Shown here: piece by piece, positions 29,781-44,061 of the stretch
How positions within the stretch are numbered: the stretch's first letter is position 1
Layout of the letters: every line of letters begins with the position of its first letter
Origin: an uncultured Desulfobacter sp.
GTDB taxonomy: Bacteria; Desulfobacterota; Desulfobacteria; Desulfobacterales; Desulfobacteraceae
Direction: 5' to 3'
Length of the DNA: 64,000 nt
NCBI GenBank assembly: GCA_963665095.1
Contig: OY762069.1
Location: 5,152,001-5,216,000 of the forward strand
The notes under the pieces: generated by a model
What the model saw: the letters and a program-made list of their open reading frames with translations, nothing else
The model's database searches: none
Told to the model about the DNA's origin: nothing
Program-made: the position numbers and the translations under genes

Positions 29781-29839
29781 GATTCAATGTTTCAGGCGCT
29801 TTTGAGAGGATACCCGCTCAGGCCGCAAAAATTAGTGTT

Positions 29840-30409
29840 CTATTCGGGGATATAAATTACCGCATGGATTTCAGCTTTTTCTTCACCGGCACAGGAGACA
29901 TAATGAGGGACCACGGAGTTGTAATATATAGAGTCGCCGGCGTTAAGTTCATAAATTTTGTTGCCGTAAATCACTTCCACCTTGCCTGATACAACAATGA
30001 TGAACTCTTCGCCTTCATGGGAAGACAGGGTTTTGTCCCTGGCAGATTCCGGCATGATCTCAACGAAAAAGGGCTCCATGTGCCGGTCTGATTTGCCTTT
30101 GCCCAGGGCATAAAAATTTAAGGCCGGGGTTTTGTTTGTCCCGTCCAGTACTGAAAAACCGTCTGCCCGCTCCGCTTTGCGGACAATAAAGGGATCGCCG
30201 CTGTCCTGGTCATCCAGAAAAGTGCCCAGCCGTACGCCAAGAGCCCGTGCAATTTTCATTAAAGGTCCCAGAGGCGGATACACATCCTCGTCAAGCATGG
30301 TGGTGATAAATTTGGGATCAAGGCCTGCTGCCTCTGACAGGGCTGTGATGTCCATCTCCCTTTTTTCCATGTATGCTCTAATCCGCTGGTTTACTTTTCC
30401 TGTTTGCAT
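29840..30409 (-). CDS. XRE-family HTH regulator with a cupin domain
   Basis: HTH with PPLGPLMKIARALGV; cupin motifs HEGEEF and GDSIYYNSVVPH. Confidence 0.9.
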   Translation of the reverse strand: MQTGKVNQRIRAYMEKREMDITALSEAAGLDPKFITTMLDEDVYPPLGPLMKIARALGVRLGTFLDDQDSGDPFIVRKAERADGFSVLDGTNKTPALNFYALGKGKSDRHMEPFFVEIMPESARDKTLSSHEGEEFIIVVSGKVEVIYGNKIYELNAGDSIYYNSVVPHYVSCAGEEKAEIHAVIYIPE

Positions 30410-30525
30410 TTATCCTCCCTGTTTTTATAAAAGGTACCGGGGATTCCCACTTTTCATGTCCGCCCCATGCCCGGAACCAGGCCGTGATTCGCACCGGCTC
30501 CTATCCTCATTTTAGAAGAGATAAT

Positions 30526-30554
30526 GCTATAATATATCATGACATTTTTGTCAA
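30526..30554 (-). promoter_or_regulatory. Sigma70 promoter of the XRE operon with an overlapping palindromic operator
   Basis: TTGACA-17nt-TATAGC on the minus strand; TGACA-TTTT-TGTCA palindrome at 30540-30553. Confidence 0.55.
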
Positions 30555-30734
30555 AAAATTCATAAAAATATGATCGCTGTTAACATCGCACGGGCGTAAC
30601 CGTTCGATTTGCCGGGTCCGGGAGTGAAAGCATGGCTGCTGGAAGTTGCTCAAAGGAGGAACGGCACCGGGCTGTTCATACCTCATGCCCCGGCACCCGG
30701 TGCTTCAGGGGTGAAGCACCGCCGAAAAGAATCC

Positions 30735-30859
30735 GTGTTTGAGCGAAAAGTCACATATATGCAAGGCGTAGAAAAAGTTGAGACCGGAGCAACATTTTCG
30801 GTAGTGAGGATTTTAAATTTTCTGTAACACAGCAGGTGGGTGGCTTTTCGCTCAAACAC
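30735..30859. repeat. MITE/REP-like element of 125 bp with 20-bp terminal inverted repeats
   Basis: GTGTTTGAGCGAAAAGTCAC (30735-30754) versus GTGGCTTTTCGCTCAAACAC (30840-30859), one mismatch. Confidence 0.75.
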
Positions 30860-30873
30860 TAAGAACGTAAGTC

Positions 30874-31080
30874 TCAGGCATCTATCATGACACTGGTTGC
30901 TTTGATAACGACGGTAACCTCTTTGCCTGCCGCAAGGCCAAGCTTTTCTGCTGAACTGGTTGTGATGGTGGACACGACATCAACGCCCGGTGCTACCTCT
31001 ACAACGATTTCAGCCATAACCATGCCTTTTTTGACATCTTTAACCTTTCCTTTAATAAGGTTTCTTGCGCTTAACGACAT
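30874..31080 (-). CDS. mop: Molybdate-binding Mop/TOBE (molbindin) protein
   Basis: SARNLIKG, STIT and IKATSVMI in a 68-aa protein. Confidence 0.92.
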   Translation of the reverse strand: MSLSARNLIKGKVKDVKKGMVMAEIVVEVAPGVDVVSTITTSSAEKLGLAAGKEVTVVIKATSVMIDA

Positions 31081-31410
31081 AATAATTTTCTTCTTTTTTT
31101 TGATTGAAATAATGTTTTTTTGACAGGAATGCGTCAGGAAGACGACGGATGAAAATATGGTATGCTTATATCAGCACCTTGTCAAACGGTTCCGCAAAAA
31201 AAATGCATGGTACAAATTTTTTTGCTGAAGCATATAAATTTGTTTTAATAACAGGATGTTAACGATGTATTCGCCGGGTGTGGAATTTTTACTTGTTTCT
31301 TTGGCCGATTTAATAGTATCAAGACCCCGAAAAGACTGAGTGATTAGTGAAAAAAGGGGCTACCCCGTTTCGATCAAACGGCGAAAAGAAAAAGATAAAA
31401 GGAGTCTGCA

Positions 31411-32244
31411 ATGTCCGATACAGTTTCTTTCTCTATATGGCAGGGAATCCATCACCGGATACTTGAATCATTTCAGGGAAAAAATATAGTGGTGTCATAT
31501 TCAGGTGGAAAGGACTCATCCCTGCTCTTAAATTTCCTTCAACAGGCCGTACCGGTTTACGGATTTCATCTCCATGTGCATGGTGTGGCATATCCCTGCC
31601 ATGTATTTCCCAAAGACGAGCAGGCCCGGTTGTCAAAATACTGGCAGGACCATGGCCTTGACATTATCTGGCACACCGGTCAGGACTCGGATGCCCCTTT
31701 GGATAAGGTGTTTAAAAACAAGAAAAGCCCCTGTGTGGCCTGCAGTAAAGAAAAAAAACAGGCCCTTTATTCTTATTTTGATTCCCGGAATACAGACTGG
31801 AAAAATATGGTAATCGTTATTGGATATACCCTGTGGGATCTTGCCAGTGCCGTGGTGGAGCACACCCTGCGGGAAAGCTTTGGCGGGGGAGATCAGGGAG
31901 ATTTTCAGGGGCGGCCGGCCAAAGACCGTTTTCTTGAGATTGCCCAGCGCTTTTATCCGGTGCTTGACATGGGAAACGGGCTTAAGGTTTTCAAACCGCT
32001 GATCCGCTACAATGACACGGATATTGCCCGGGCGGTTTCCGCCCTTGATATCCCGCTGACCCGTGAGGAGTGCCAGTTCAAAATGTACCGGCCCAAACGG
32101 CTGTTAGCGGAATATTATACCCTGTTCGGCCTGAATTTTTCCTATGAGGATGTATTTTCTTTTGCCAAAAAGGCCTTTGAGTTCCCTGACCAGGATTTTT
32201 TTCAGGCCCGGGAAATGGTCTCTTATGTGTCCGACATGATCTAA
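31411..32244 (+). CDS. Divergent TtcA-like PP-loop ATP pyrophosphatase
   Basis: SYSGGKDS PP-loop, SPCVAC and FKPL; the canonical GHHxDD is replaced by GYTLWD. Confidence 0.75.
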   Translation: MSDTVSFSIWQGIHHRILESFQGKNIVVSYSGGKDSSLLLNFLQQAVPVYGFHLHVHGVAYPCHVFPKDEQARLSKYWQDHGLDIIWHTGQDSDAPLDKVFKNKKSPCVACSKEKKQALYSYFDSRNTDWKNMVIVIGYTLWDLASAVVEHTLRESFGGGDQGDFQGRPAKDRFLEIAQRFYPVLDMGNGLKVFKPLIRYNDTDIARAVSALDIPLTREECQFKMYRPKRLLAEYYTLFGLNFSYEDVFSFAKKAFEFPDQDFFQAREMVSYVSDMI

Positions 32245-32510
32245 ATATAATCTGGCGGCATCAATGCTGCATATCCTTCCTATCGTTTAACAATTTTTTT
32301 CAAAACAACGATCCCGTTGATTGATTGTTGAACTGCCCTTCTGCCGGCAGCGGTTCAGAGCTTTTTTTCTGAAGCTGTCCGGCATGTCCGGTGTTTTTGC
32401 AATAAAACAAGGTTGTTTCTGAATTTGATTTTCAGGAATTGCTATGAGTAAATTGCATAACATATCAATATGTTATCTTTTTTTTAGCGGTAAAAAAGGA
32501 GAAGCAGTGG

Positions 32511-33317
32511 ATGCAAAATGACAATTACATTATGGACAGTGAGGACGAGATCCAGCGTCTGGACATGAAAACGGATCTGGATATTCTTGAAAAACAGGTG
32601 ACCTGGGCCGGGCTTCTCCCCGGTATGAGCGTGGGAGATATGGGATGCGGTCCGGGAAAAACCACCATGCACCTTGCCCGCCTGACAGGTCCAAACGGTA
32701 AGGTCACCGGGGTGGACATGGCCCCGGACAGGCTTGCCTATGCCGAACGGCACTATTCAGGCCCTGGCATATCCTATGTCCGGGCCGACGTAAGACAGCC
32801 CCCTGAGGATCTTGGTCCGTTTGATTTTATTTTTCTGCGCTTTGTTCTGGAGTTTTACAAAAATGAAGCGGCTGACATGGTTAAGGCGCTTTCTTCCCTG
32901 CTTCGCCCGGGGGGAATTTTTTTCCTATCAGATTTGGACCACAATTGCCTGAATCACTACGGTATCCCGGAAAAATTGGATGTCGCCATTCACGGTGTAA
33001 TGGAGAGTCTTGGTCGAAAAACCGGATTTGATCCATGGGCAGGCCGGAAGCTCTATGCTCACCTATTTGACTTAGGCTTTCAGGATATTTGTGTGGAGGT
33101 GTCAGGCCACCACATGATTTACGGCGATATCTCCGATAGCGAAGCATTTAACTGGACCAAAAAAATTGAAGCGGCGGCAAAACATTCCGGATATGCGTTT
33201 GAAGAGTTCGAGGATGGCTTTGCCGGCTTTAAAAAAGCAAGCCTTTCGTTTTTCACCAATCCACGGCGTTTCACCTACACCCCAATCATCTGCTGCAAAG
33301 GGAGGAAACCTGCATGA
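32511..33317 (+). CDS. Class I SAM-dependent methyltransferase
   Basis: DMGCGPG motif I, GVD, FDFIF and LRPGG. Confidence 0.9.
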   Translation: MQNDNYIMDSEDEIQRLDMKTDLDILEKQVTWAGLLPGMSVGDMGCGPGKTTMHLARLTGPNGKVTGVDMAPDRLAYAERHYSGPGISYVRADVRQPPEDLGPFDFIFLRFVLEFYKNEAADMVKALSSLLRPGGIFFLSDLDHNCLNHYGIPEKLDVAIHGVMESLGRKTGFDPWAGRKLYAHLFDLGFQDICVEVSGHHMIYGDISDSEAFNWTKKIEAAAKHSGYAFEEFEDGFAGFKKASLSFFTNPRRFTYTPIICCKGRKPA

Positions 33318-34441
33318 TCGTTATGCCCAGTCCCGAGCTCTTTTTTGATACACGGTACGTCACCCCTCACCTGAAACTGCTGCCAGCCAACAGCCTTTCT
33401 TTTGATCAACTTTATACCCACTACCTTGAAGCCGGCTTCATCTACCCGGCCAAACTGGAAAAACTGCTGCCCCATTTTGACCTGATCCGGGAAAACTGGA
33501 CCCGGGCATACGCAGCCGGCAGAGGCCTTCTATGGACCATTGCATATGAAGATGAGCGGTACAATAAAATGGGAACCGTCACAGCATGGCGGGCAACCAT
33601 CAACGGCTGGCAGTCCCAGCACCTCACATCCCGGAACCATGCCGCCGGCCTGCTATATCTGCTGCTTGCAGCCCAGGATGAAGGCATCTTAACCGGTTGC
33701 GCGTCCGGCCAGAACTGGTACTCCCCCACCAATGCCTTTGCCATGAAAATCTATGGGCGTATGACCCGGGTTCTGGGAGAAGATTGTGCGGATGCACAGC
33801 TGCTTAATTATTTTCTGGTTGACCCGTCCGGACTTCGGTCAGAATCCCGGGAATTCAAAGTGGTAAGGTGCCGGCAGGAGGATCAGGATATGGTCCGGCA
33901 GACATGTGAACGGTTAAGGGGCCGGGTCTATTGCGAGGCTGAGGAAATTGATGGAAGTGATATTGAACTGGATGCCCTGGACAGGGCGTTCAGGCGTTAT
34001 GGTCTGCGGCGGCGACGGTTTATCTGGATGGCTCTGGATAAGGGATCGGACCTGCCTGTCGGGATGGTTATGGCCTACAGGGGGCCGTTTGGCTTAAATT
34101 TCAGTTTTCTGGAAAACAGGTGTGATCTGATGGTGGTGCCGGATCTTGATCCCGGCCGCAACGAAGCCGTGTGCCGGATTCTGATGGCAAAGGCGGCCCA
34201 GGCCTATTTTGATTCAAGTTCTCTGCCTGAATATCCTCTGTCCAAACTGGTGGTGATGGCGCCTGAAAATTGTGAGCAGGCCGTGGCAGATCTGGGCGGT
34301 ATTAAAGCCCGTCAGTACAACCAGGGCATCTGGCTCAACAGGGGTTTTGAGAAATGGAAAAAATATATGATGCGCGTCTTCTCTCCGGTGATTCAAAGGT
34401 TTGAAAAGCAGAATCGAATGAGTGAAACAACCCATGCCTGA
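33314..34441 (+). CDS. Hypothetical protein, possibly a tandem GNAT-like fold
   Basis: 375-aa ORF overlapping the methyltransferase stop (ATGA); contains EAGFIYPAK and GLNFSFLEN. Confidence 0.7.
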   Translation: MIVMPSPELFFDTRYVTPHLKLLPANSLSFDQLYTHYLEAGFIYPAKLEKLLPHFDLIRENWTRAYAAGRGLLWTIAYEDERYNKMGTVTAWRATINGWQSQHLTSRNHAAGLLYLLLAAQDEGILTGCASGQNWYSPTNAFAMKIYGRMTRVLGEDCADAQLLNYFLVDPSGLRSESREFKVVRCRQEDQDMVRQTCERLRGRVYCEAEEIDGSDIELDALDRAFRRYGLRRRRFIWMALDKGSDLPVGMVMAYRGPFGLNFSFLENRCDLMVVPDLDPGRNEAVCRILMAKAAQAYFDSSSLPEYPLSKLVVMAPENCEQAVADLGGIKARQYNQGIWLNRGFEKWKKYMMRVFSPVIQRFEKQNRMSETTHA

Positions 34442-34632
34442 ATTCAGGTAAAGACTTTCGATTTTTACTGTTTCAGAATGAAATATCCAGGCGGATGGTT
34501 TTTTTAGAAGACAAATATTGTTTTCGGTTATAAAACGTGGTCTATTCAGCTAATGATTTGTCAACAGGCCTGACAATCATTTTCAGCCGATGCCGGTGGG
34601 CTGTGATTTTTCGGCCATGAAAGAAAAAGATA

Positions 34633-37158
34633 ATGGATACCGACCTCAATAGCGCCGACCCCAAAAAGTTCGACCCGGACAAAGAGCTGTATAACAGTCT
34701 GGTGCTGGATACCTACATCACCCTGATAAAAGACAGGTACCCCAACATAGAGATTGAAGACCTCATGGCCTATGCCGGGATTGAGAATTATGAGCTCGGG
34801 GATTATTCCGTTTGGTTTACCCAGAGGCAGGTCAACCGGTTTCATGAACGGTTAAGCATGCTCACCGATAACATGAGGATTGCCTGGGAGGCCGGGCGGT
34901 ATGCAGCCACCCCCAAATGTTTCGGGGAGGTGCGCGGACTTGTGCTCTCATTGGGCGGTATCAGACGGGCCTATGAACTGATTGGAAAATATGCCAGACG
35001 CCTGAACCGTTCCTCCCACTATACCACCCAGACCCTTGGGAAAAATAAAATTGAAATTGTGGTCTCCCCCAATGAGGGGGTAAAGGAAGAGCCTTTTCAA
35101 TGCGAAAACCGGCTGGGTAATCTGCGGGGCATTGCAGATATGTTTTCCCATAAGGATGTGACCATTACCCACCCGGAATGCATGTTCAAAAACGGGGAAG
35201 TATGCCGGTATGAGGTGGCCTGGCGGGATACTGCGTCATCGGTCCTTGCGCCCCTGGCCGGGTTTTCCATGTTTGTTACCCTGCTGATGTTTATTGCACC
35301 GTGGACGTCGGCAGGCGCAGCTGTTCCCCACGGCGCCTGGTTGATCTCCCTGGTGGTCTCCCTGGGGATGGGGTGGGCCGATCAAAAGGCAAAAACCAAT
35401 GCACTGGGGCGGTCTTTAAATGGCATTTACACCACCAAAGAGGAACTGCTCTCTCAGATTGAAATCAATGCGGAAAATTTCAGGGTCATCATTGATATCG
35501 GTCAGGCTTTGGGTCTTGAAGATTCTGAAGGACATATATTTGAGCGGGCCGCCAGAATTGCCGGACGTCAAATGAAATACGACCGGACCATGATCATGAT
35601 TGCCAACGACGAAAAAACCGTCCTTTCCTATTGCGGGGGGTATGGATTTACGGATCTGGAAAAAAAGTATGTGTCAAAATACAGTATCTCCCTGGATGAC
35701 CCTTCCGAAGGGGTGTTTTACGAAGCTTTCAGGAATGATACGCCCATACTGGTGAACGATATGGAGATGCTGAAAAACAGGTCTTCATCAAGAAGTTTCA
35801 AGCTGGCAGAGCAGATGAGACCCTTTTCCTTTATCGTCAGTCCCATTGATGTGGATGGCGTCCCCATTGGGATTTTTATTGCAGGTAATAACAGGACACC
35901 AAGGCTTCTCGACCGTAATGACAAGCATCTGGTCATGGGGGTTGCCCAGCAGATTGGCACTGTCTACAGGCGCCAGAAATATGAAGAGCAGCAGGCGGAA
36001 TTCAACCGGCAGATCGTGCAACTCCAGAAGATGGAGGCGCTTGGTGTGCTGGCCGGGGGCATTGCCCATGATTTCAATAATATTTTATCGCCCATCCTCG
36101 GTTATACAGATCTGTGTCTGTCCGTATGCCCGGAAGATGAACAGATCCAGGAATATCTGAACCGGGTGAAAAAAGCTGGGGTCCGGGCACAGGAACTGGT
36201 GGGACAGATTCTGGCCTTCAGCCGCCAGGGGGAAAAGGAGCATATCCGCTGTCATCCCGGCCCTATTGTCAAGGAGACCTTGAAACTATTGAGGGCCTCT
36301 GTTCCCCGGGCCATCAAGATAGAGACCCTGGTCCGCCAGGATCTTAAGCCCATCATGGCAGACCCTACACAGATTCACCAGCTTGTCATGAATCTTTGCA
36401 CCAATGCCTACCATGCCATGGCGGAAAGCGGCGGCGTGCTTAAAGTCAGCCTGGAGGAGATTCAGGTCAGGGAACGGCCCCTTGAAGATGCCCGACGTAT
36501 GCTGCCCGGTAACTATATTCACATGCAGGTGGCAGATACCGGCCACGGCATGAGTAAACAGGTGATGGCAAATATTTTTGAGCCCTACTTTACTACCAAG
36601 CAAAAGGGTAAGGGTACAGGGCTCGGGCTTTCCATTGTCCAGAATATTGTGGCCCGTCTTAAAGGGTATGCTTTTGTGGACAGCATGGAAGGACAGGGAA
36701 GCTGTTTTGATATTTATCTGCCCCAGGCAGGTGAAAAATCGTCGAAAAAACAGGAAAATTTTGAACCTGCAGCACCCAGAGGAAAAGAATCCATCCTTCT
36801 GGTGGATGATGAGTCCCAGATTCTGCTTCTGCATAAGGAGATGCTGGAAGGGTTTGGCTACAAGGTGTCAGCCTGTGCTGACAGCCAGGTGGCCTTGGAT
36901 ATTTTCAGCCGGCATGCCAGCCAGTGGGATCTGGTGGTAACGGACCAGGTTATGCCGGGCCTGACAGGCATGGAACTGGCAGAACAGATTTTCAAAATTT
37001 CCACTGATACACCGGTTATTTTGTGTACCGGATATTCTGATGCCGTAACCGAAGATCAGGTAAAGGAAAAAGGAATTTCCGCCTTTGTCATGAAACCTGT
37101 GGTGAGTGCCCAACTGGCCCGGTGTATCCGCACGGCACTGGGGGCCACTGATACGTAA
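34633..37158 (+). CDS. Hybrid sensor histidine kinase (V4R-like N-terminal domain, 2 TM, GAF, HisKA, HATPase, REC)
   Basis: LAGGIAHDFNN, NLCTNA, DTGHG, FEPYFTTK, GTGLGL and a C-terminal REC; the N-terminal domain has CENRLG and HPECMFKNGEVCRY. Confidence 0.9.
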   Translation: MDTDLNSADPKKFDPDKELYNSLVLDTYITLIKDRYPNIEIEDLMAYAGIENYELGDYSVWFTQRQVNRFHERLSMLTDNMRIAWEAGRYAATPKCFGEVRGLVLSLGGIRRAYELIGKYARRLNRSSHYTTQTLGKNKIEIVVSPNEGVKEEPFQCENRLGNLRGIADMFSHKDVTITHPECMFKNGEVCRYEVAWRDTASSVLAPLAGFSMFVTLLMFIAPWTSAGAAVPHGAWLISLVVSLGMGWADQKAKTNALGRSLNGIYTTKEELLSQIEINAENFRVIIDIGQALGLEDSEGHIFERAARIAGRQMKYDRTMIMIANDEKTVLSYCGGYGFTDLEKKYVSKYSISLDDPSEGVFYEAFRNDTPILVNDMEMLKNRSSSRSFKLAEQMRPFSFIVSPIDVDGVPIGIFIAGNNRTPRLLDRNDKHLVMGVAQQIGTVYRRQKYEEQQAEFNRQIVQLQKMEALGVLAGGIAHDFNNILSPILGYTDLCLSVCPEDEQIQEYLNRVKKAGVRAQELVGQILAFSRQGEKEHIRCHPGPIVKETLKLLRASVPRAIKIETLVRQDLKPIMADPTQIHQLVMNLCTNAYHAMAESGGVLKVSLEEIQVRERPLEDARRMLPGNYIHMQVADTGHGMSKQVMANIFEPYFTTKQKGKGTGLGLSIVQNIVARLKGYAFVDSMEGQGSCFDIYLPQAGEKSSKKQENFEPAAPRGKESILLVDDESQILLLHKEMLEGFGYKVSACADSQVALDIFSRHASQWDLVVTDQVMPGLTGMELAEQIFKISTDTPVILCTGYSDAVTEDQVKEKGISAFVMKPVVSAQLARCIRTALGATDT

Positions 37159-37168
37159 CCCCCCCCTG

Positions 37169-38047
37169 TCATCTGTTCTCTTCAATTTTTCCCATGGATA
37201 TTTTACCAAGAATTGCCGCAGCAATGATCACGGCCATACCGGCCAGCACCTGGGCTGTGACCTGTTCTTTGTGGATCATGGCCACCAGGAGAACGGCCAA
37301 GGGCGGTGTCAGATAGCTTAAGTATCCGATAATGGTGATATTGCCTGAGGTTAATGCCTTGCCCCAGAAAAAGAAGGAAAGACCTAAAGGTACACATCCG
37401 AGATATACTGCGGAAAGGAATGCCCGCATTCCGGGAAAAGCAAAACCGCCGGAAGCAAGACACAGTACAACGGAAATTGCAGCTGCATACATGGAAAAGG
37501 CAGTCATAGGGTCTTTTTTAAGCTTCAGTATTGGCAGGCCGACACTGAAACTGCTCCAGATAAGTCCACAGGTCAGGGCTATGCCGTATCCGTGGAGATG
37601 ATCGGTTGAAAAGGAGATCGTGTGGCCGGCAGATATCACCAGGCCTGCCCCGAAAAGTCCTGCCAGTGCCGTCAGGCATATGGGTATGGAAACCCTGCCC
37701 AGGGCGACAATGGACGACATGACTACGATCCAGAAGGACCATGTGGTGGCCAGAATGGTGCCTTCGGCCATGGGGGCAAGTGCCATGGCTTTGTAGTAAA
37801 GAAAATGGTAGAGAAAAATACCCCAGATGCCTAGTAGACTGGCTTTAGTTCCCGGAAAATAAATATCAAAGGAGCGGGTGGCGATCACATCCCGGGCATA
37901 GAGAAACAGGGCGGCACAGGTAAAGCTTATGGCCATGAGCTGGGCAACCGTTAACCCCTCAAGGCCCGAGCCAATGGCTGCGGGAAGACTGGCCCAGCAC
38001 AGTACCGCTCCCATGGCGTATATGTACGGTATGGTTTTCATAGCCAC
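37169..38047 (-). CDS. DMT/EamA family transporter
   Basis: About 10 TM helices in two repeats; GYLSYLTP. Confidence 0.85.
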   Translation of the reverse strand: MAMKTIPYIYAMGAVLCWASLPAAIGSGLEGLTVAQLMAISFTCAALFLYARDVIATRSFDIYFPGTKASLLGIWGIFLYHFLYYKAMALAPMAEGTILATTWSFWIVVMSSIVALGRVSIPICLTALAGLFGAGLVISAGHTISFSTDHLHGYGIALTCGLIWSSFSVGLPILKLKKDPMTAFSMYAAAISVVLCLASGGFAFPGMRAFLSAVYLGCVPLGLSFFFWGKALTSGNITIIGYLSYLTPPLAVLLVAMIHKEQVTAQVLAGMAVIIAAAILGKISMGKIEENR

Positions 38048-38294
38048 CCTGAATAAAGCCGATACAAAAAAAATGCAACAGGTCTTTTACAGGCAAGGGG
38101 ATTTATTAAGTTTGTTAAACTCAAGGATTTCCTGGGAAAAGGGGTTTAAAATCCAGGCCCGATGGTATATTAACTAAAATTGAAAATTAGGTTTTTTAAG
38201 TAAGAAAGGGATATTAGCCATTGGAAAGTAAGTAAAGTTCGAAGCGTTCGGCTTTGCTTGTCAGAATAAATTCGCCAATCATGTGAGAAAATAG

Positions 38295-39464
38295 ATGAAA
38301 TTAAGATTTAGCGTCGCGTTGCTGGGGCTTATTTCGTTGTTATTGTGCCCGGCCTGTAAGGAGGCGGAACAACAGACCGCCAAAGCCATTCCTCCGGTGG
38401 AGGTTGCCGTTTTCAAAACCCAGGCCCAGGATGTGCCCATTTACCAGGAGTTTGTGGGCCAGATTTACGGTGCCAAGGACATTGCCATCCGGGCCCGGGT
38501 GGAAGGGTTTCTGAAAGGGATTCATTTCAAAGAGGGATCCGCAGTTAAATCCGGGGATCTGTTGTACACCATTGAAAGCCAGCCCTTTGAGTCTGAGGTG
38601 GCTTCCAGGAAAGGTCTTCTGGCCGAAGCCGAAACCAAAATGGTCAAGGCCAAACGGGACCTGGACCGGTATAAACCCCTGGCTGCCATGAATGCGGTGT
38701 CCCAGAGTGATTTAGACGGCGCCCAGGCCGCCTATGATGCGGCAAAGGCAGGGGTGGATGCGGCAACGGCCAATGTCAGATCCGCCCAGATCCAGATGGG
38801 GTACACCAAAATTTACTCCCCCATTGACGGCATCATCGGCAAAACAAAGGCCAAGGTCGGAGATTTTGTGGGCCGGGATCCCAATCCGGTGATCCTGAAC
38901 GAGGTCTCCAATACCAGCTCCGTACTGGTGGAGTTTTTTCTTACGGAGAATCAGTACCTGGACCTTTACCGCCACGTGATTGCCGCCGATGAGAGCCAGG
39001 TCGCCCAAAAGAAAAAAGAGGGCGCGGACATCCAGCTGATTCTGGCCGACGGCTCCCTGTATCCCCACAAGGGGACGCCCAATTTCCTGGACCGGCAGAT
39101 TGACCCCACCACGGGGGCCATCCTTGTTCAGGTCTCTTTCCCCAACCCGGACAATCTTCTTCGGTCCGGCCAGTTTGCAAAGATCAAGGCCATGGTGAAC
39201 AAGATAAAAGAGGGCATTCTCGTTCCCCAGCGCTGTGTCACCGATCTGCAGGGCCGCAAAAAGCTCTTTGTGGTGGTTGACGACGGCAAGGTGGAGGAGC
39301 GGGATGTCACCCTGGGCCCGGATGTGGATAACTTTGTGCTGATCAAAAAAGGAATTACCGCCGGGGAATCGGTGGTGTATGAAGGATTGCAGAAAGTGGC
39401 GGACGGCACCACGGTCAAGACAAAAGAAGCCAGGGTGGAACGTATAACACAGGAACAGGAATAA
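38295..39464 (+). CDS. RND efflux periplasmic adaptor (MFP)
   Basis: IRARVEGFL, KIYSPIDG, IDPTTG and LVPQ. Confidence 0.92.
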   Translation: MKLRFSVALLGLISLLLCPACKEAEQQTAKAIPPVEVAVFKTQAQDVPIYQEFVGQIYGAKDIAIRARVEGFLKGIHFKEGSAVKSGDLLYTIESQPFESEVASRKGLLAEAETKMVKAKRDLDRYKPLAAMNAVSQSDLDGAQAAYDAAKAGVDAATANVRSAQIQMGYTKIYSPIDGIIGKTKAKVGDFVGRDPNPVILNEVSNTSSVLVEFFLTENQYLDLYRHVIAADESQVAQKKKEGADIQLILADGSLYPHKGTPNFLDRQIDPTTGAILVQVSFPNPDNLLRSGQFAKIKAMVNKIKEGILVPQRCVTDLQGRKKLFVVVDDGKVEERDVTLGPDVDNFVLIKKGITAGESVVYEGLQKVADGTTVKTKEARVERITQEQE

Positions 39465-42400
39465 TGGGTGCATTTTTTGTCCGGCGGCCCATTGTCGCCA
39501 TGGTTATTGCCATTGTCACGGTGATTTTAGGTGTGCTGTCCGTGTTTAAGCTGCCCATGGAGCAGTATCCCAATATCACGCCGCCCATTGTCCAGGTACG
39601 GGCCAGTTACACCGGTGCCAACGCCACCAATGTGGAGGCGTCCGTTGCCACGCCTTTGGAACAGCAGATCAACGGCGTGGACAACATGATCTATATGAAG
39701 TCGGTGAATGCCAATGACGGCACCATGACCATCAACGTCTCCTTTGAGATCGGCACGGATCCGGACATGAATACCGTATTTGTCCAGAACCGCGTGTCTG
39801 CGGCCACGGCCAAACTGCCGGAAGAGGTCAAGCGTCTTGGGGTCACCACGGAAAAATCCCTGCCCAACATCCTGATGCTTGTGGCGCTCACCGATCCCTC
39901 CGACAAGTATGACCAGAATTTTCTGAACAACTATGCCCTGATCAATATCAAGGACTCACTGGCCCGGTTGAAAGGGGTCGGACGGGTGGATGTTCTGGGC
40001 GGCTCCGACTACTCCATGCGCATCTGGATCAAACCCGACCGCCTGGCCCAGCTGGATATGACCGTGTCCGAGATCACGGCGGCCATCAAGGCCCAGAACG
40101 TGATTGTGGCCGGTGGAAAGTTCGGCGCGGAACCGGCGCCAGACGGCACGGAATTTACCTATACCGTGCGTCTGCCGGACCGGCTCGCTTCCGAGGAGGC
40201 CTTTGGCGACATTGTGGTTCGTACCACCCCCAGTGGCGCCCAGGTGAAAATCAAGGATGTGGCCAAGGTGGAGCTGGGTGTGGAATCCTACAATGTTTTC
40301 TCCCGCATGGACGGCAAACCCTGTTCCATCATTGCGCTGTACCAGGCGCCGGGTTCCAATGCCGTGAACCTGGCCGAGGAGATCCGGTCGGTGATGGCCC
40401 GGCTCTCCAGCTCTTTTCCCAAAGGCATGCGCTATGATGTCTCTCTGGACGCCACACTGCCCATTACCAAAGGTATTGACGAGATCGTCGAGACCCTGTT
40501 GATAGCCCTGGCCCTGGTTATTTTTGTTGTTTTTATCTTTATCCAGGACTGGCGGGCGACCCTCATTCCCACCATTGCCATTCCTGTCTCCCTGCTTGGT
40601 GCCTTTGTGGCATTCCCGCTTCTGGGATTTACGGTGAATACGCTTTCGCTGCTAGGACTGGTACTGGCCATTGGTATTGTTGTGGATGATGCTATCGTAG
40701 TGGTGGAGGCGGTCCAGGTCAATATTGCCAAGGGCATGGATGCCAAGGCCGCCACCGTCGAAGCCATGCGCGAGGTAACCGCCCCTATCGTGGCCACCAC
40801 CCTGGTCCTTGTGGCGGTGTTCCTGCCGGTGTCTGCCATGGGCGGCATCACAGGACGCCTCTATCAGCAGTTTGCCCTGACCATTGTGGTTTCGGTCCTT
40901 TTTTCCTCCATAAATGCCTTGTCTTTAAGTCCGGCCCTTTGCGGGCTTCTGCTCAAAGAGCCCAAACCCTACCGGGGACCCTTGGGGTGGTTTTTCTCGG
41001 TCTTCAACAAGGGGTTTGACGCCTCAACAAATGTTTACATCAAGATTGCCCGGATGGTGGCCCGCAAGGCGGTTATCGGGGTGCTTTTCATTGTGGCCGT
41101 GTGCTGCGGCACAGGGGTTGTGGGCAAGTTGCTGCCCGGCGGCTTTATTCCCACCGAGGACATGGGATACTTCATGGTCAATGTCCAGCTGCCGGACGCC
41201 GCCTCCCTCCAGCGGTCAGATGCCGTCACCAAGCAGGTGGAGAAGATGATTGCCAAACACCCGGAAGTGGAGCATGTCACCAATGCCACGGGCTTTTCCA
41301 TGCTCTCCTCCTCCATGGGGCCCAATTACGGCTTCCTGTTTGTCTCGCTCAAGGATTGGGACGAGCGGGAGAGAACGGCTGATGAACTGGTCTCCCAGTT
41401 AAATAAAGAGTTCTATTTCGGGATCAACCAGGCCCAGGTATTTGCCTTTTCGCCGCCGGCCATCCCGGGGCTTGGCACTGGTTCCGGCTTTACCTTCATG
41501 CTCCAGGACCGCGTGGGTAATACGCCGGCCTATCTTGGCCATCAGGCCGTCCAGTTCATAGCCGCCGCTAAAAAACGCAAAGAGATCGGGTCGGTGCGCA
41601 CCACCTTCAGTCCCAATGTCCCCCAGAAACTCATTGAAGTGGACCGGGACAAGGCGCTCAAGGCCGGCATCAGCCTCAACGACATCTACACCACCATCGG
41701 CGCGTTCCTGGGCGGCTCCTATGTCAACGACTTTAATAAGTTCGGCCGGCTTTACAGGGCCTATATCCAGGCAGAACCCGAATATCGGCTCAACGCCAAG
41801 AAGCTCGGACAGTTTTTTATAAGGAACAAACAGGGAAAAAGCGTGCCGCTGTCCGCCTTTATCAAGGTTCAGGAGGTGTATGGTCCGGATTATACCAACC
41901 GGTTCAACCTCATGCGGGCCGCAGAGATCTCCGGGACCCCTGCCCAGGGGTATACCTCGGCCCAGGCCATGGCGGCCCTGGAAGAGGTGGCCGCCGAAGT
42001 GCTGCCCGATGACATGACCTACTCCTGGAGCGACATGTCCTACCAGGAGCATGCGGCTGCCGGTACCGGCGCCGTGGTCTTTGTCTTCTCCCTGGTCTTT
42101 GTTTTCCTGATTCTGGCAGCCCAGTATGAAAGCTGGTCCCTTCCCTTCAGCATCCTTTTAGGCACGCCCTTTGCCCTGTTCGGTGCCATGGGGCTTGTCT
42201 TCCTGGCCCGGTATTTTGACCTGACATACGAGAACAACGTGTTTGCCCAGATCTCGCTTGTACTGCTCATCGGCATGGCAGCCAAAAACGCCATTTTGAT
42301 TGTGGAGTTTGCCAATATTAAATTCCATGAGGGCTTAAGCCTGTTCGATGCGGCCATTGAGTCGGCTAAAATAAGATTCCGTCCGATTCTGATGACGGCA

Positions 42401-42604
42401 TTTGCCTTTATCCTGGGTATTTTTCCCCTGGTGGTGGCCACCGGTGCCGGAGCCATGGCCCGTAAGGTCATGGGTGTGGCGCTTTTGGGCGGCATGACCC
42501 TTGCCACCTTTCTTGGTGTATTTTTCTATCCCATGCTCTTTGTCTTTATCGGCAAGCTGTGCCGGTATGAGAAAAAGCGGGATATGGCCCCAAAAAATGA
42601 GTAA
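39464..42604 (+). CDS. RND efflux permease (HAE1, AcrB-like)
   Basis: FFVRRPIVA, GIVVDDAIVVVE, AKNAILIVEFA and RFRPILMT. Confidence 0.95.
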   Translation: MGAFFVRRPIVAMVIAIVTVILGVLSVFKLPMEQYPNITPPIVQVRASYTGANATNVEASVATPLEQQINGVDNMIYMKSVNANDGTMTINVSFEIGTDPDMNTVFVQNRVSAATAKLPEEVKRLGVTTEKSLPNILMLVALTDPSDKYDQNFLNNYALINIKDSLARLKGVGRVDVLGGSDYSMRIWIKPDRLAQLDMTVSEITAAIKAQNVIVAGGKFGAEPAPDGTEFTYTVRLPDRLASEEAFGDIVVRTTPSGAQVKIKDVAKVELGVESYNVFSRMDGKPCSIIALYQAPGSNAVNLAEEIRSVMARLSSSFPKGMRYDVSLDATLPITKGIDEIVETLLIALALVIFVVFIFIQDWRATLIPTIAIPVSLLGAFVAFPLLGFTVNTLSLLGLVLAIGIVVDDAIVVVEAVQVNIAKGMDAKAATVEAMREVTAPIVATTLVLVAVFLPVSAMGGITGRLYQQFALTIVVSVLFSSINALSLSPALCGLLLKEPKPYRGPLGWFFSVFNKGFDASTNVYIKIARMVARKAVIGVLFIVAVCCGTGVVGKLLPGGFIPTEDMGYFMVNVQLPDAASLQRSDAVTKQVEKMIAKHPEVEHVTNATGFSMLSSSMGPNYGFLFVSLKDWDERERTADELVSQLNKEFYFGINQAQVFAFSPPAIPGLGTGSGFTFMLQDRVGNTPAYLGHQAVQFIAAAKKRKEIGSVRTTFSPNVPQKLIEVDRDKALKAGISLNDIYTTIGAFLGGSYVNDFNKFGRLYRAYIQAEPEYRLNAKKLGQFFIRNKQGKSVPLSAFIKVQEVYGPDYTNRFNLMRAAEISGTPAQGYTSAQAMAALEEVAAEVLPDDMTYSWSDMSYQEHAAAGTGAVVFVFSLVFVFLILAAQYESWSLPFSILLGTPFALFGAMGLVFLARYFDLTYENNVFAQISLVLLIGMAAKNAILIVEFANIKFHEGLSLFDAAIESAKIRFRPILMTAFAFILGIFPLVVATGAGAMARKVMGVALLGGMTLATFLGVFFYPMLFVFIGKLCRYEKKRDMAPKNE

Positions 42605-42615
42605 AGATTAAAATT

Positions 42616-44061
42616 ATGAACAGATTTTCATCCGTTACAGCATTTGTTGTTTTATCCCTGGCCCTGGCATCAGGCATGTTTTTTTCAGGCTGTATCAGTG
42701 TGGGGCCTGATTTTGAAAAACCCGTTGTAGAGACGCCGTCTGAGTATCGGTTTGCCCCGTCACAGACCACCGATCAGGAGCTGAAGTGGTGGGAACTGTT
42801 CCGGGATCCCGCCCTTTACGATCTGGTCAACACCGCCCTGGAAAACAACAAGAACCTGCAGCAGGCCATGAGCCGGATTGAGGAAGCACGGTTTTCCTAC
42901 GGCATGAGCCGGGCAGACAGAGGACCCGCCGTCAATGTGGGGGCCGGGGGTTTTGCCGGCAATTATTCCGGCACCAGATACGGCACCACCAACAATAATT
43001 TTTATGCCTCTTTGAATCTTGCCTGGGAAGTGGATTTCTGGGGAAAATACAAACGGGCCTCCGAGGCAGCCAAGGCCAATATCCTGGCCTCAACCTACGG
43101 GGCCTGGGCCATCCGGACCACCCTGGTCAGTGATGTGGTCACCGCCTATTACCAGCTGCTGGATTACCGCTCACGCCTTGACATGTCCAAAGAGACCCTT
43201 GCCACAAGACAGGACGGTTTGGATATCATCACCAAACGGTTTGAAAAAGGCATAATTCCTGAGATCGACGTCAACCAGGCCCAGATCCAGCTGGAAGTGG
43301 CAGCCGGGGCCATCCCCACCTACGAGCGGCTCATTACCAGAACCGAACACCGGATCAAACTGCTCATGGGTGCGCTGCCCGGAGAGGTTTATACCGATAC
43401 CACCCTGGAGGAGCAGTCCGCACCCCCAGCGATTCCGGTGGGTGTGCCTGCCTCTTTGCTGGAACGGCGCCCGGAAATTCAACAGGCCTTAGCCCAGCTT
43501 CATGCCAGCAACGAGCAGATCGGGGTGGCCGTGGCCCAGCGGCTTCCTGCCATCAGCCTGACCGGCATGCTGGGTCTGGCTTCTTCGGAAGTTTCCAATG
43601 TCACCAACCAGGGCGGCATCTGGAATCTGGGTGGCGGTGTTTTAGGGCCGCTGTTTGACTTCCGAAAATCCAAGTTCCGGGTGGATGTGGCCAAAGAGCA
43701 GACCCGCCAGGCATTGTTCAACTACGAGAAGGTGGTTCTTACGGCATTTAAAGAGGTGGCGGATGCCCTGGTGGATGTGGACACTTATAAACGTGCAGGC
43801 GAGGCAGCTGAAAGAAAAGTTGCGGCAGCTCAGAATGCGGCCAGGCTCTCCTTTGAGCGGTACGACAAGGGCGTCAGCTCTTATCTTGAGGTATTGGATT
43901 CCGAACGTACCCTGTTTTCAGCCCAGCTTGAATTTTCAGAAACCCGACAGCTTTACTTTAATGCCTATGTCAGCCTGTATAAAGCCCTTGGTGGGGGGTG
44001 GCTTATTTCAGATGATACCAGTGAAGACGGCACAGACGGGGTGAGTACTGCAACCCCCTGA
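42616..44061 (+). CDS. RND outer membrane factor lipoprotein (OprM/NodT family)
   Basis: Lipobox FFSGC, WEVDFWG, LLERRP and LYKALGGGW. Confidence 0.93.
   Translation: MNRFSSVTAFVVLSLALASGMFFSGCISVGPDFEKPVVETPSEYRFAPSQTTDQELKWWELFRDPALYDLVNTALENNKNLQQAMSRIEEARFSYGMSRADRGPAVNVGAGGFAGNYSGTRYGTTNNNFYASLNLAWEVDFWGKYKRASEAAKANILASTYGAWAIRTTLVSDVVTAYYQLLDYRSRLDMSKETLATRQDGLDIITKRFEKGIIPEIDVNQAQIQLEVAAGAIPTYERLITRTEHRIKLLMGALPGEVYTDTTLEEQSAPPAIPVGVPASLLERRPEIQQALAQLHASNEQIGVAVAQRLPAISLTGMLGLASSEVSNVTNQGGIWNLGGGVLGPLFDFRKSKFRVDVAKEQTRQALFNYEKVVLTAFKEVADALVDVDTYKRAGEAAERKVAAAQNAARLSFERYDKGVSSYLEVLDSERTLFSAQLEFSETRQLYFNAYVSLYKALGGGWLISDDTSEDGTDGVSTATP

Follow-up and report, generated by a model that had tools for sequence, protein, structure and literature searches.

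Gene organization of the locus

The 64-kb stretch of DNA analysed here, which we refer to as the window, comprises positions 5152001-5216000 of contig OY762069.1 from an uncultured Desulfobacter sp. and contains a conserved enzyme-receptor module: a TtcA/LarE-like PP-loop enzyme, an S-adenosylmethionine (SAM)-dependent methyltransferase (MT), a protein with a tandem-GNAT acyltransferase fold (GNAT in what follows) and a hybrid histidine kinase with an H-NOX-like sensor domain (Table 1). A preliminary description of this DNA, made from its letters alone, had read the four genes as a synthesis-and-sensing system for a small molecule. The co-oriented open reading frames it listed are present at 31411-37158, as is the ATGA overlap (33314-33317) coupling MT to GNAT; the other gaps in the cassette are 266 and 191 bp, and in locus L011 the same four genes nearly abut one another. 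A contig from another public sequencing run (X10) covers 29800-38134 with identical gene order, which excludes an assembly artefact. It differs from the window by 41 letters and four one-base indels, the latter outside the open reading frames or at the very end. Each cassette gene is single-copy in the source genome, except for weak MT paralogues. At the locus there is no Rfam match, promoter and terminator scans remained at chance level, and PADLOC matches are generic domain matches.

Table 1. Features of the window (positions in window numbering).
Feature	Position	Strand	Comment
TtcA/LarE-like PP-loop enzyme	31411-32244	+	277 aa; predicted ATP-dependent sulfur insertase with an optional tailoring role
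Class I SAM methyltransferase (MT), distinct subfamily	32511-33317	+	268 aa; core partner of GNAT
Stand-alone tandem-GNAT acyltransferase fold	33314-34441	+	375 aa; no Pfam family; predicted acyl-ACP user
Hybrid histidine kinase	34633-37158	+	841 aa; H-NOX-like sensor, membrane hairpin, GAF, HisKA (H479), HATPase, REC (D771)
Sensor domain of the kinase, residues about 15-197	34675-35223	+	H-NOX fold; zinc ligands C157, H180, C183, C191
EamA gene	37169-38047	-	Converges on the kinase gene, 10 bp beyond its end
MFP/AcrB/OMF (RND) pump	38295-44061		After EamA

Co-occurrence of the enzymes and the sensor

The enzymes and the sensor kinase co-occur far above chance. Across 301 genomes of the phylum, with eight candidates per genome scored in the MT search, the sensor is found in 40, GNAT in 33, MT in 28 and the TtcA-like gene in three. 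The sensor is present in 31 of the 33 GNAT-bearing genomes, against about 4.4 expected from its overall frequency (40/301), although kin among these genomes are not independent, and 26 of the 28 MT-bearing genomes have both GNAT and the sensor. The same association is seen at the level of individual loci. We took 40 of the 46 sensor loci other than the window itself, leaving out six that were weak or on short contigs; within about 10 kb of the sensor, GNAT lies in 22, MT in 16, a B12-type radical SAM gene in 14 and FadL in six. FadL adjoins MT in four loci, from four families (L076, L077, L078 and L085), and PMC5977203 describes FadL as aiding the uptake of long-chain N-acyl homoserine lactones.

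The enzymes had been expected to accompany the sensor on varied outputs, and this expectation is borne out: the domain stands at the front of both hybrid and plain kinases, of HD-GYP proteins and of HD-GYP-PilZ proteins. Most Desulfobacterota GNATs in turn carry extra N-terminal domains, which are PilZ where Pfam names them. One contig (L190, 9123-20831) holds a tandem duplication of the MT/PilZ-GNAT/sensor module.

The sensor domain

The cysteines that made the sensor appear unusual in the preliminary description are indeed present, but they correspond to a known zinc site of H-NOX proteins. A predicted model of the domain (predicted local distance difference test score, pLDDT, 91) matched H-NOX in Foldseek at E ~1e-7 and superimposed on the Shewanella oneidensis H-NOX (4u99) with Z 17.6 and a root-mean-square deviation (rmsd) of 2.5 over 173 aligned residues, and on Nostoc H-NOX with Z 16.9. 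The ligand-binding domain of VirS (Z 15.1, rmsd 3.7, 178 aligned) and PoxR (Z 8.7) followed, and palmitoylated TRAPP Bet3 shares the fold. In a weak alignment (E 0.03), C157, H180, C183 and C191 fall on the S. oneidensis zinc ligands C139, H161, C164 and C172, and the domain thus carries the Cys3-His/Gln site of the zinc-binding H-NOX subgroup. Other conserved residues are D57-x3-W61, E152 and R160.

The heme-binding features of the fold are missing. YxSxR, the propionate motif of H-NOX proteins, is found in none of 48 sensor rows, and no conserved proximal heme histidine is apparent in the sensor alignment, where the only columns with more than 20% His are 60, 71, 180 and 185, none of them in the expected helix. 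According to PMC7108781, the proximal histidine is absolutely conserved in H-NOX. With the fold taken from the model and the lack of this histidine judged from sequence, the sensor reads as a heme-free H-NOX fold. Weak Pfam matches to the VirS/CdpR-type AraC N-terminal or V4R families were obtained for 31 and 25 of the 48 members, respectively, at E<=0.1, the window's own match lying below the Pfam cut-off. No hydrophobic segment precedes the end of the sensor in 74 of 75 rows, and two follow it in 57 of 75, the second being weaker in the window. Sensor and kinase are therefore predicted to be cytoplasmic, and any ligand would have to be intracellular or membrane-permeant. More divergent H-NOX-like sensors also occur in the family (L228-L234), as part of kinases or next to response regulators of the LuxR type; some lack the C-terminal Cys part, and no module enzymes lie nearby.

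The acyltransferase fold and its methyltransferase partner

The 375-aa protein, first described as an orphan, belongs to no named family, as claimed, and structure search refines it to a tandem-GNAT acyltransferase fold. It has no Pfam match (0 families at E<=1) and no NCBIfam match better than E 0.096; its top Atlas rows are hypothetical clusters only, and its profile, which matches 1062 clusters at 50% identity, finds no relative among PDB sequences. The predicted model (pLDDT 94) superimposes on histidine acetyltransferase 9emd with Z 14.7 and rmsd 4.5 over 271 residues, followed by 4zm6, 3ddd and 3tt2 (Z 13.3-13.5), N-myristoyltransferase (NMT, 11.9) and, lower, Fem-like enzymes; identity in the tandem-GNAT and NMT matches is 7-14%. 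Across 64 rows, F42, Y44, K47, H103 and Y335 are invariant and the motif-B Asn of the GNAT superfamily fold (N140) is present in 60. The GNAT acetyl-CoA pyrophosphate loop has the form (R/Q)xxGx(G/A), and this canonical loop is present in one of the 64 rows, while seven positions are basic in more than 70% of them. Because the acetyl-CoA loop is absent and these positions are basic, we infer that the enzyme uses an acidic acyl carrier such as acyl carrier protein (ACP); aminoacyl-tRNA could also serve as a substrate, given the Fem-like fold matches. None of the 64 members matches the acetyltransferase, FeeM, Acetyltransf_5 or Autoind_synth families of Pfam, and the FeeM and Acetyltransf_5 profiles do match neighbouring genes in L014 and L016.

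Fusions were sought in 19 of the longer homologues among the 150 listed GNAT representatives. Six are GNAT-MT and two are ACP-GNAT, and enolase-GNAT, REC-GNAT, GNAT-cNMP and GNAT-sensor-GAF (P0079) fusions occur once each. P0050 (717 aa) contains the tandem GNAT twice.

The MT subfamily is marked by invariant Y6, M8, E13, R16, K20, R110, D141 and D143, and none of its members reaches a strong NCBIfam match. Its association with GNAT extends well beyond the phylum: we found 60 genome loci with GNAT in seven phyla, and MT lies beside it, sometimes fused to it, in 45. The 55 loci outside Desulfobacterota (L014-L068) include 41 with MT, eight with an enolase-family gene and none with the sensor, and MT lies at most 1.5 kb downstream of GNAT in 35 of the 51 with room for it. 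Their other neighbours include an extracytoplasmic function (ECF) sigma factor with a Ser/Thr kinase, desaturase-like genes, FeeM and E1/FabH fusions. The two-gene core is found in cultured, tractable strains (Streptomyces, Fulvivirga); a Streptomyces GNAT gave no plasmid match. Roseobacters are not represented among the 60 loci, and no search of roseobacter genomes was made.

In quick trees the window MT nests among MTs of PilZ-linked Desulfobacterota modules, whereas the window GNAT falls with the stand-alone proteins of other phyla, in a tree that carries a long-branch warning. This discordance points to an exchange of the GNAT at its existing site, with PilZ control as an extra layer.

Two recurring arrangements of GNAT in other phyla are set down here as observations. 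In Acidobacteriota (L018-L020, L023-L026, L028) GNAT is followed by a TonB receptor, a YfiR/HmsC-like gene and a CHASE8-HAMP kinase, often with a stand-alone PilZ gene upstream, and it is possible that this kinase set is a different receptor for a similar product. In Saprospiraceae and Cyclobacteriaceae (L043, L044, L046, L050, L051, L053, L056, L058; also L047 and L021) GNAT comes after an enolase gene with no MT nearby; in some of these loci a desaturase-like gene is next, its best NCBIfam match being arginine hydroxylase (184 bits against a cut-off of 380).

The TtcA/LarE-like enzyme and a sister module

The divergent TtcA-like enzyme of the preliminary description does have the PP-loop (SGGKDS at 31) and three invariant cysteines (C108, C111 and C221), but its role is accessory, the gene occurring in three of the 301 genomes. 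In the family sample it is present in five of six cassettes. Where the TtcA-like gene elsewhere in this genome has GHNKDD, the window enzyme has GYTLWD, so that the GHxxDD motif is absent. The score for the TtcA equivalog is 24 bits against a cut-off of 272, and scores are far below the TtcA, TilS and LarE cut-offs generally. The best PDB profile matches are the U34 thiolase 6scy and 8cnz, which is labelled as an NAD_synthase domain-containing protein and which we take to be LarE. Two stronger PP-loop genes of housekeeping type, one TtcA-like and one TilS-like, lie elsewhere in the source genome, one of them with TtcA-type motifs. The enzyme is predicted to be an optional ATP- and Fe-S-dependent sulfur insertase.

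Among the best 80 of 156 metagenome loci with TtcA-like genes, which were not dereplicated, 46 have the sensor, MT or GNAT, as do 22 of the 24 loci that are 10 kb or longer. They fall into two types, 23 with MT and 32 with an enolase-family gene, and none with both. Twenty of the enolase loci have a sensor, which belongs to a second clade; an LpxL-type acyltransferase is present in 14 of these and GNAT in none. The enolase profile is closest to 2p88, presumably an N-succinyl amino acid racemase, and to dipeptide epimerases, with weak matches to the N-acetyl-D-Glu racemase DgcA. We considered MT and the enolase as alternative carboxyl-capping steps and rejected the idea at the level of genomes: at least four of 11 enolase-bearing genomes also carry MT, and five of seven genomes with GNAT and no MT have no enolase match.

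The enolase loci define a sister module (L074, 452-7206; L168, L169, L185, L193, L198, L204, L209) that combines a divergent sigma-54 response regulator, an LpxL-type acyltransferase, an optional B12 radical SAM gene, a kinase with a second-clade H-NOX-like sensor, an enolase-family racemase-like gene and a TtcA-like gene. None of the 32 enolase-type TtcA loci has GNAT or MT, and in L074 the two modules lie side by side. A linked radical SAM family (L074, 13362-14954, minus strand; L096, L109, L110, L115) has as its best NCBIfam match a PhpK-type P-methyltransferase, at 258 bits against a cut-off of 600.

Kinases without enzymes

In 121 genomes of the family, GNAT and MT occur in the same six, and close full-length sensors occur in those six and in 12 further same-genus genomes that gave no enzyme match. 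We examined the nine best-assembled of these solos. All occupy the same site as in the window, next to the acyl-CoA synthetase and cupin genes, seven with RND genes, and they lack the DNA corresponding to about 30570-34670. All 38 enzyme-linked sensors of clade A and all 20 of clade B retain W61, as do 25 of 26 others; of the nine solos one retains it, the rest having G, V or S, and the zinc ligands are kept in all nine. Solo and window are 46-61% identical in the sensor, 74-79% in the kinase core and 90-92% in the neighbouring synthetase. The relation is reversed in five more distant linked orthologues, which are 62-70% identical to the window in the sensor and 52-61% in the core. Among themselves, the solos are 69-73% identical in the sensor and 82-90% in the core, and the linked orthologues 65-80% and 45-70%. 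In the solos, then, the sensor has changed more quickly than the kinase core, which fits a sensor ligand that comes from the enzymes, and the solos look more like relics than eavesdroppers.

A proposed function for the module

The recurring plan of an acyltransferase, tailoring enzymes and this receptor points to acylated amino acids as the product class. We suggest, as somewhat more probable than otherwise, that the ligand of the sensor is an enzyme-made lipid of amino-acid type, acylated and methylated. In favour are the folds, motifs, gene linkage and fusions described above, together with the faster divergence of the sensor in the solos. GNAT would acylate an amine with acyl-ACP as the donor, and MT would cap the product, most simply as a methyl ester, letting it cross membranes; the TtcA/LarE-like enzyme would add an optional tailoring step, perhaps thiolation of a carbonyl. 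The cytoplasmic sensor, next to the membrane hairpin, would bind the product and set kinase activity, signalling via GAF to HisKA and REC, or to HD-GYP in relatives.

Several observations weigh against this interpretation. The GNAT, MT and sensor profiles (A3-A5) were built partly from loci that were then counted, and nine of the 40 sensor-bearing genomes have no GNAT match. The kinase persists in the 12 same-genus genomes that gave no enzyme match, and the solos form one clade, so that they represent one event only. The solo GAF has also diverged from that of the window, which makes recombination or a general relaxation of the input half possible, and W61 may be structural rather than ligand-linked. 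Since the MT profile matches N-, O- and C-methyltransferases of the PDB alike, methyl-ester formation is a guess. The GNAT-MT pair occurs without the sensor, among varied neighbours, in all 55 loci of other phyla, and the GNAT-sensor-GAF fusion is one sequence on one contig.

An unlikely alternative is that the enzymes serve to make or alter a membrane amino-lipid of the ornithine-lipid kind, by N-acylation, O-acylation, N-methylation and head-group hydroxylation; a membrane-anchored sensor would read this lipid or one of its intermediates within the cell that makes it, and no signal would pass between cells. The partner genes mirror such a pathway, with an LpxL-type acyltransferase and a desaturase-like hydroxylase beside GNAT (L021, L047, L056, L058), and phosphoethanolamine N-methyltransferases are among the top MT matches; PMC12971839 describes OlsE as a di-iron hydroxylase and relates OlsG to the phospholipid N-methyltransferases. 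The placement of the hydrophobic segments after the sensor would suit it too. The FadL and TonB-receptor neighbours, however, suggest uptake from outside, the acetyltransferase and FeeM families are matched by no GNAT member, and the patchy spread (six of 121 family genomes) is more in keeping with a signal that can be dispensed with than with a bulk lipid. We also think it distinctly unlikely that the sensor responds to an external cue such as oxidation of its zinc thiolate and controls the enzymes as outputs, via cyclic di-GMP (c-di-GMP; HD-GYP to PilZ-GNAT) or a phosphorelay. The alignment of the zinc ligands to the S. oneidensis site and the retention of the cysteines in all nine solos are in its favour, as are the extra N-terminal domains of most Desulfobacterota GNATs and the existence of REC and cNMP fusions, and heme-free redox activation through these cysteines in Vibrio cholerae H-NOX is described in PMC7108781. 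Yet the window GNAT has no PilZ domain and falls with stand-alone proteins, its MT nesting among PilZ-linked ones, and a conserved solo kinase core behind a drifting sensor fits loss of input better than loss of output. Feedback control of the enzymes is compatible with the proposal of an enzyme-made ligand. Very improbable, finally, is that the receptor or some other signalling protein is itself the substrate of the enzymes, being covalently acylated, methylated or thiolated as in adaptation, with no free small molecule. Protein-acylating tandem GNATs (NMT, VipF) do appear among the fold matches, Bet3, which shares the sensor fold, is itself palmitoylated, and a GNAT-sensor fusion exists; the sensor-less pairs of other phyla count against this idea, and partner genes of the racemase-like, desaturase-like, ACP and FadL kinds suggest small molecules.

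A further step, which we regard as doubtful though worth stating, is that an enzyme-made ligand serves cell-to-cell signalling of an undescribed kind in Desulfobacterota, in which tandem-GNAT and MT would make an N-acyl amino acid methyl ester (NAME) read by heme-free H-NOX receptors. If so, the sulfur, racemase and radical-SAM variants would be dialects of the product, the receptors being wired to kinases and c-di-GMP phosphodiesterases, and the synthase pair, which would operate in six or more further phyla, would be the genes so far missing for NAMEs. Sulfate reducers and syntrophs of biocorrosion, anaerobic digestion and sediments would then communicate by a system that annotation misses, and the H-NOX fold would gain a heme-free, lipid-sensing branch. 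The work names a candidate synthase family and a receptor domain, neither with its own Pfam or NCBIfam family, and if our reading of the ligand holds, both would be new, the one as a family of synthases and the other as a branch of receptors; were the product an amino-lipid of the membrane instead, the gain would be a new family of acyltransferases and a kinase that senses lipids.

Relation to known systems

By analogy, the module would work like PhcB/PhcS and LuxI/LuxR in its logic. In the Ralstonia phc system, the SAM methyltransferase PhcB makes a fatty methyl ester that the histidine kinase PhcS senses, and here too a methyltransferase is encoded with a sensor kinase. In the window, MT has a tandem GNAT as its partner, with a PP-loop enzyme as an optional addition, and the kinase would take its input through a cytoplasmic H-NOX fold. 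LuxI and FeeM are GNAT-fold acyl-ACP enzymes encoded beside receptors, of which solos are also known. In contrast to both, the GNAT described here is tandem rather than single and matches neither Pfam family, and the receptor is a kinase or an HD-GYP protein. Judged on sequence, the window proteins fall outside LuxI (a single GNAT domain matching Autoind_synth), FeeM/OlsB (a FeeM or Acetyltransf_5 match), heme H-NOX and TtcA. The enzyme logic of the Ols amino-lipid pathway is similar, again without a family match to OlsB-type GNATs. The stated absence of LuxI, LuxS and RpfF stands for LuxS only, which has no match in the source genome (its control matched in 5 of 14); the LuxI search of the source genome gave no match, but neither did its control. 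Two FeeM-family matches lie elsewhere in the source genome, at contig positions 4554635-4555126 and 4119824-4120111 (L238, L239), one of them strong at 126 bits.

The sensor shares its fold, its zinc ligands and its links to kinases and c-di-GMP enzymes with the H-NOX proteins of S. oneidensis and V. cholerae. It differs from them in lacking the conserved proximal His and YxSxR, in standing in cis ahead of a membrane hairpin and in lying beside biosynthetic-type enzymes. The VirS/CdpR-type AraC N-terminal domains and the V4R sensors (PoxR, DmpR) are likewise heme-free members of the fold with small-molecule pockets, and VirS has been solved with drug-like ligands; unlike the window protein, these are transcription factors.

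For the enzymes, the PP-loop and three invariant cysteines are those of the [4Fe-4S] sulfur insertases TtcA, NcsA and LarE, from which the window enzyme differs in its low scores and in being rare and tied to the module. PixB of Myxococcus xanthus has, according to PMC8316039, two PilZ domains and a GNAT domain, assigned by Pfam, and a substrate given as unknown. It resembles the relatives of about 700 aa by domain description; the window GNAT is without PilZ, and Pfam assigns no member of its family to the acetyltransferases. NAMEs are the product class predicted for the window enzymes, and PMC11580390 reports their synthase as unknown. We found no description of the module in the literature searched, which leaves most subscription journals and bioRxiv supplements outside its coverage.

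Neighbouring genes and minor features

The EamA gene and the RND tripartite pump lie where the preliminary description placed them, but a place for them in the system is not supported, neither being kept with the cassette in other loci. EamA, considered as an exporter, has no tblastn match in loci L009-L075 or in the 15 loci of a second comparison; in one locus (L010) an EamA gene lies beside the cassette, 24% identical over 127 aa (E 0.006). The RND pump lies beside the kinase in seven of nine enzyme-less genomes, one partially, and in none of six other cassettes, and thus belongs to the genus backbone. A TOBE (molbindin-like) gene that stands alone, encodes 68 aa and runs divergently to the cassette (30874-31080, minus strand) was rejected as a component since it is not conserved beside other cassettes. 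Low-depth contigs of runs X6 and X9 join the two ends of 32838-34577 with 15 letters between them and are probably short chance matches from another organism. A dispersed intergenic repeat of about 130 bp lies at 30726-30862, with 28 blastn matches in the source genome including itself, the best of the others being about 80% identical.

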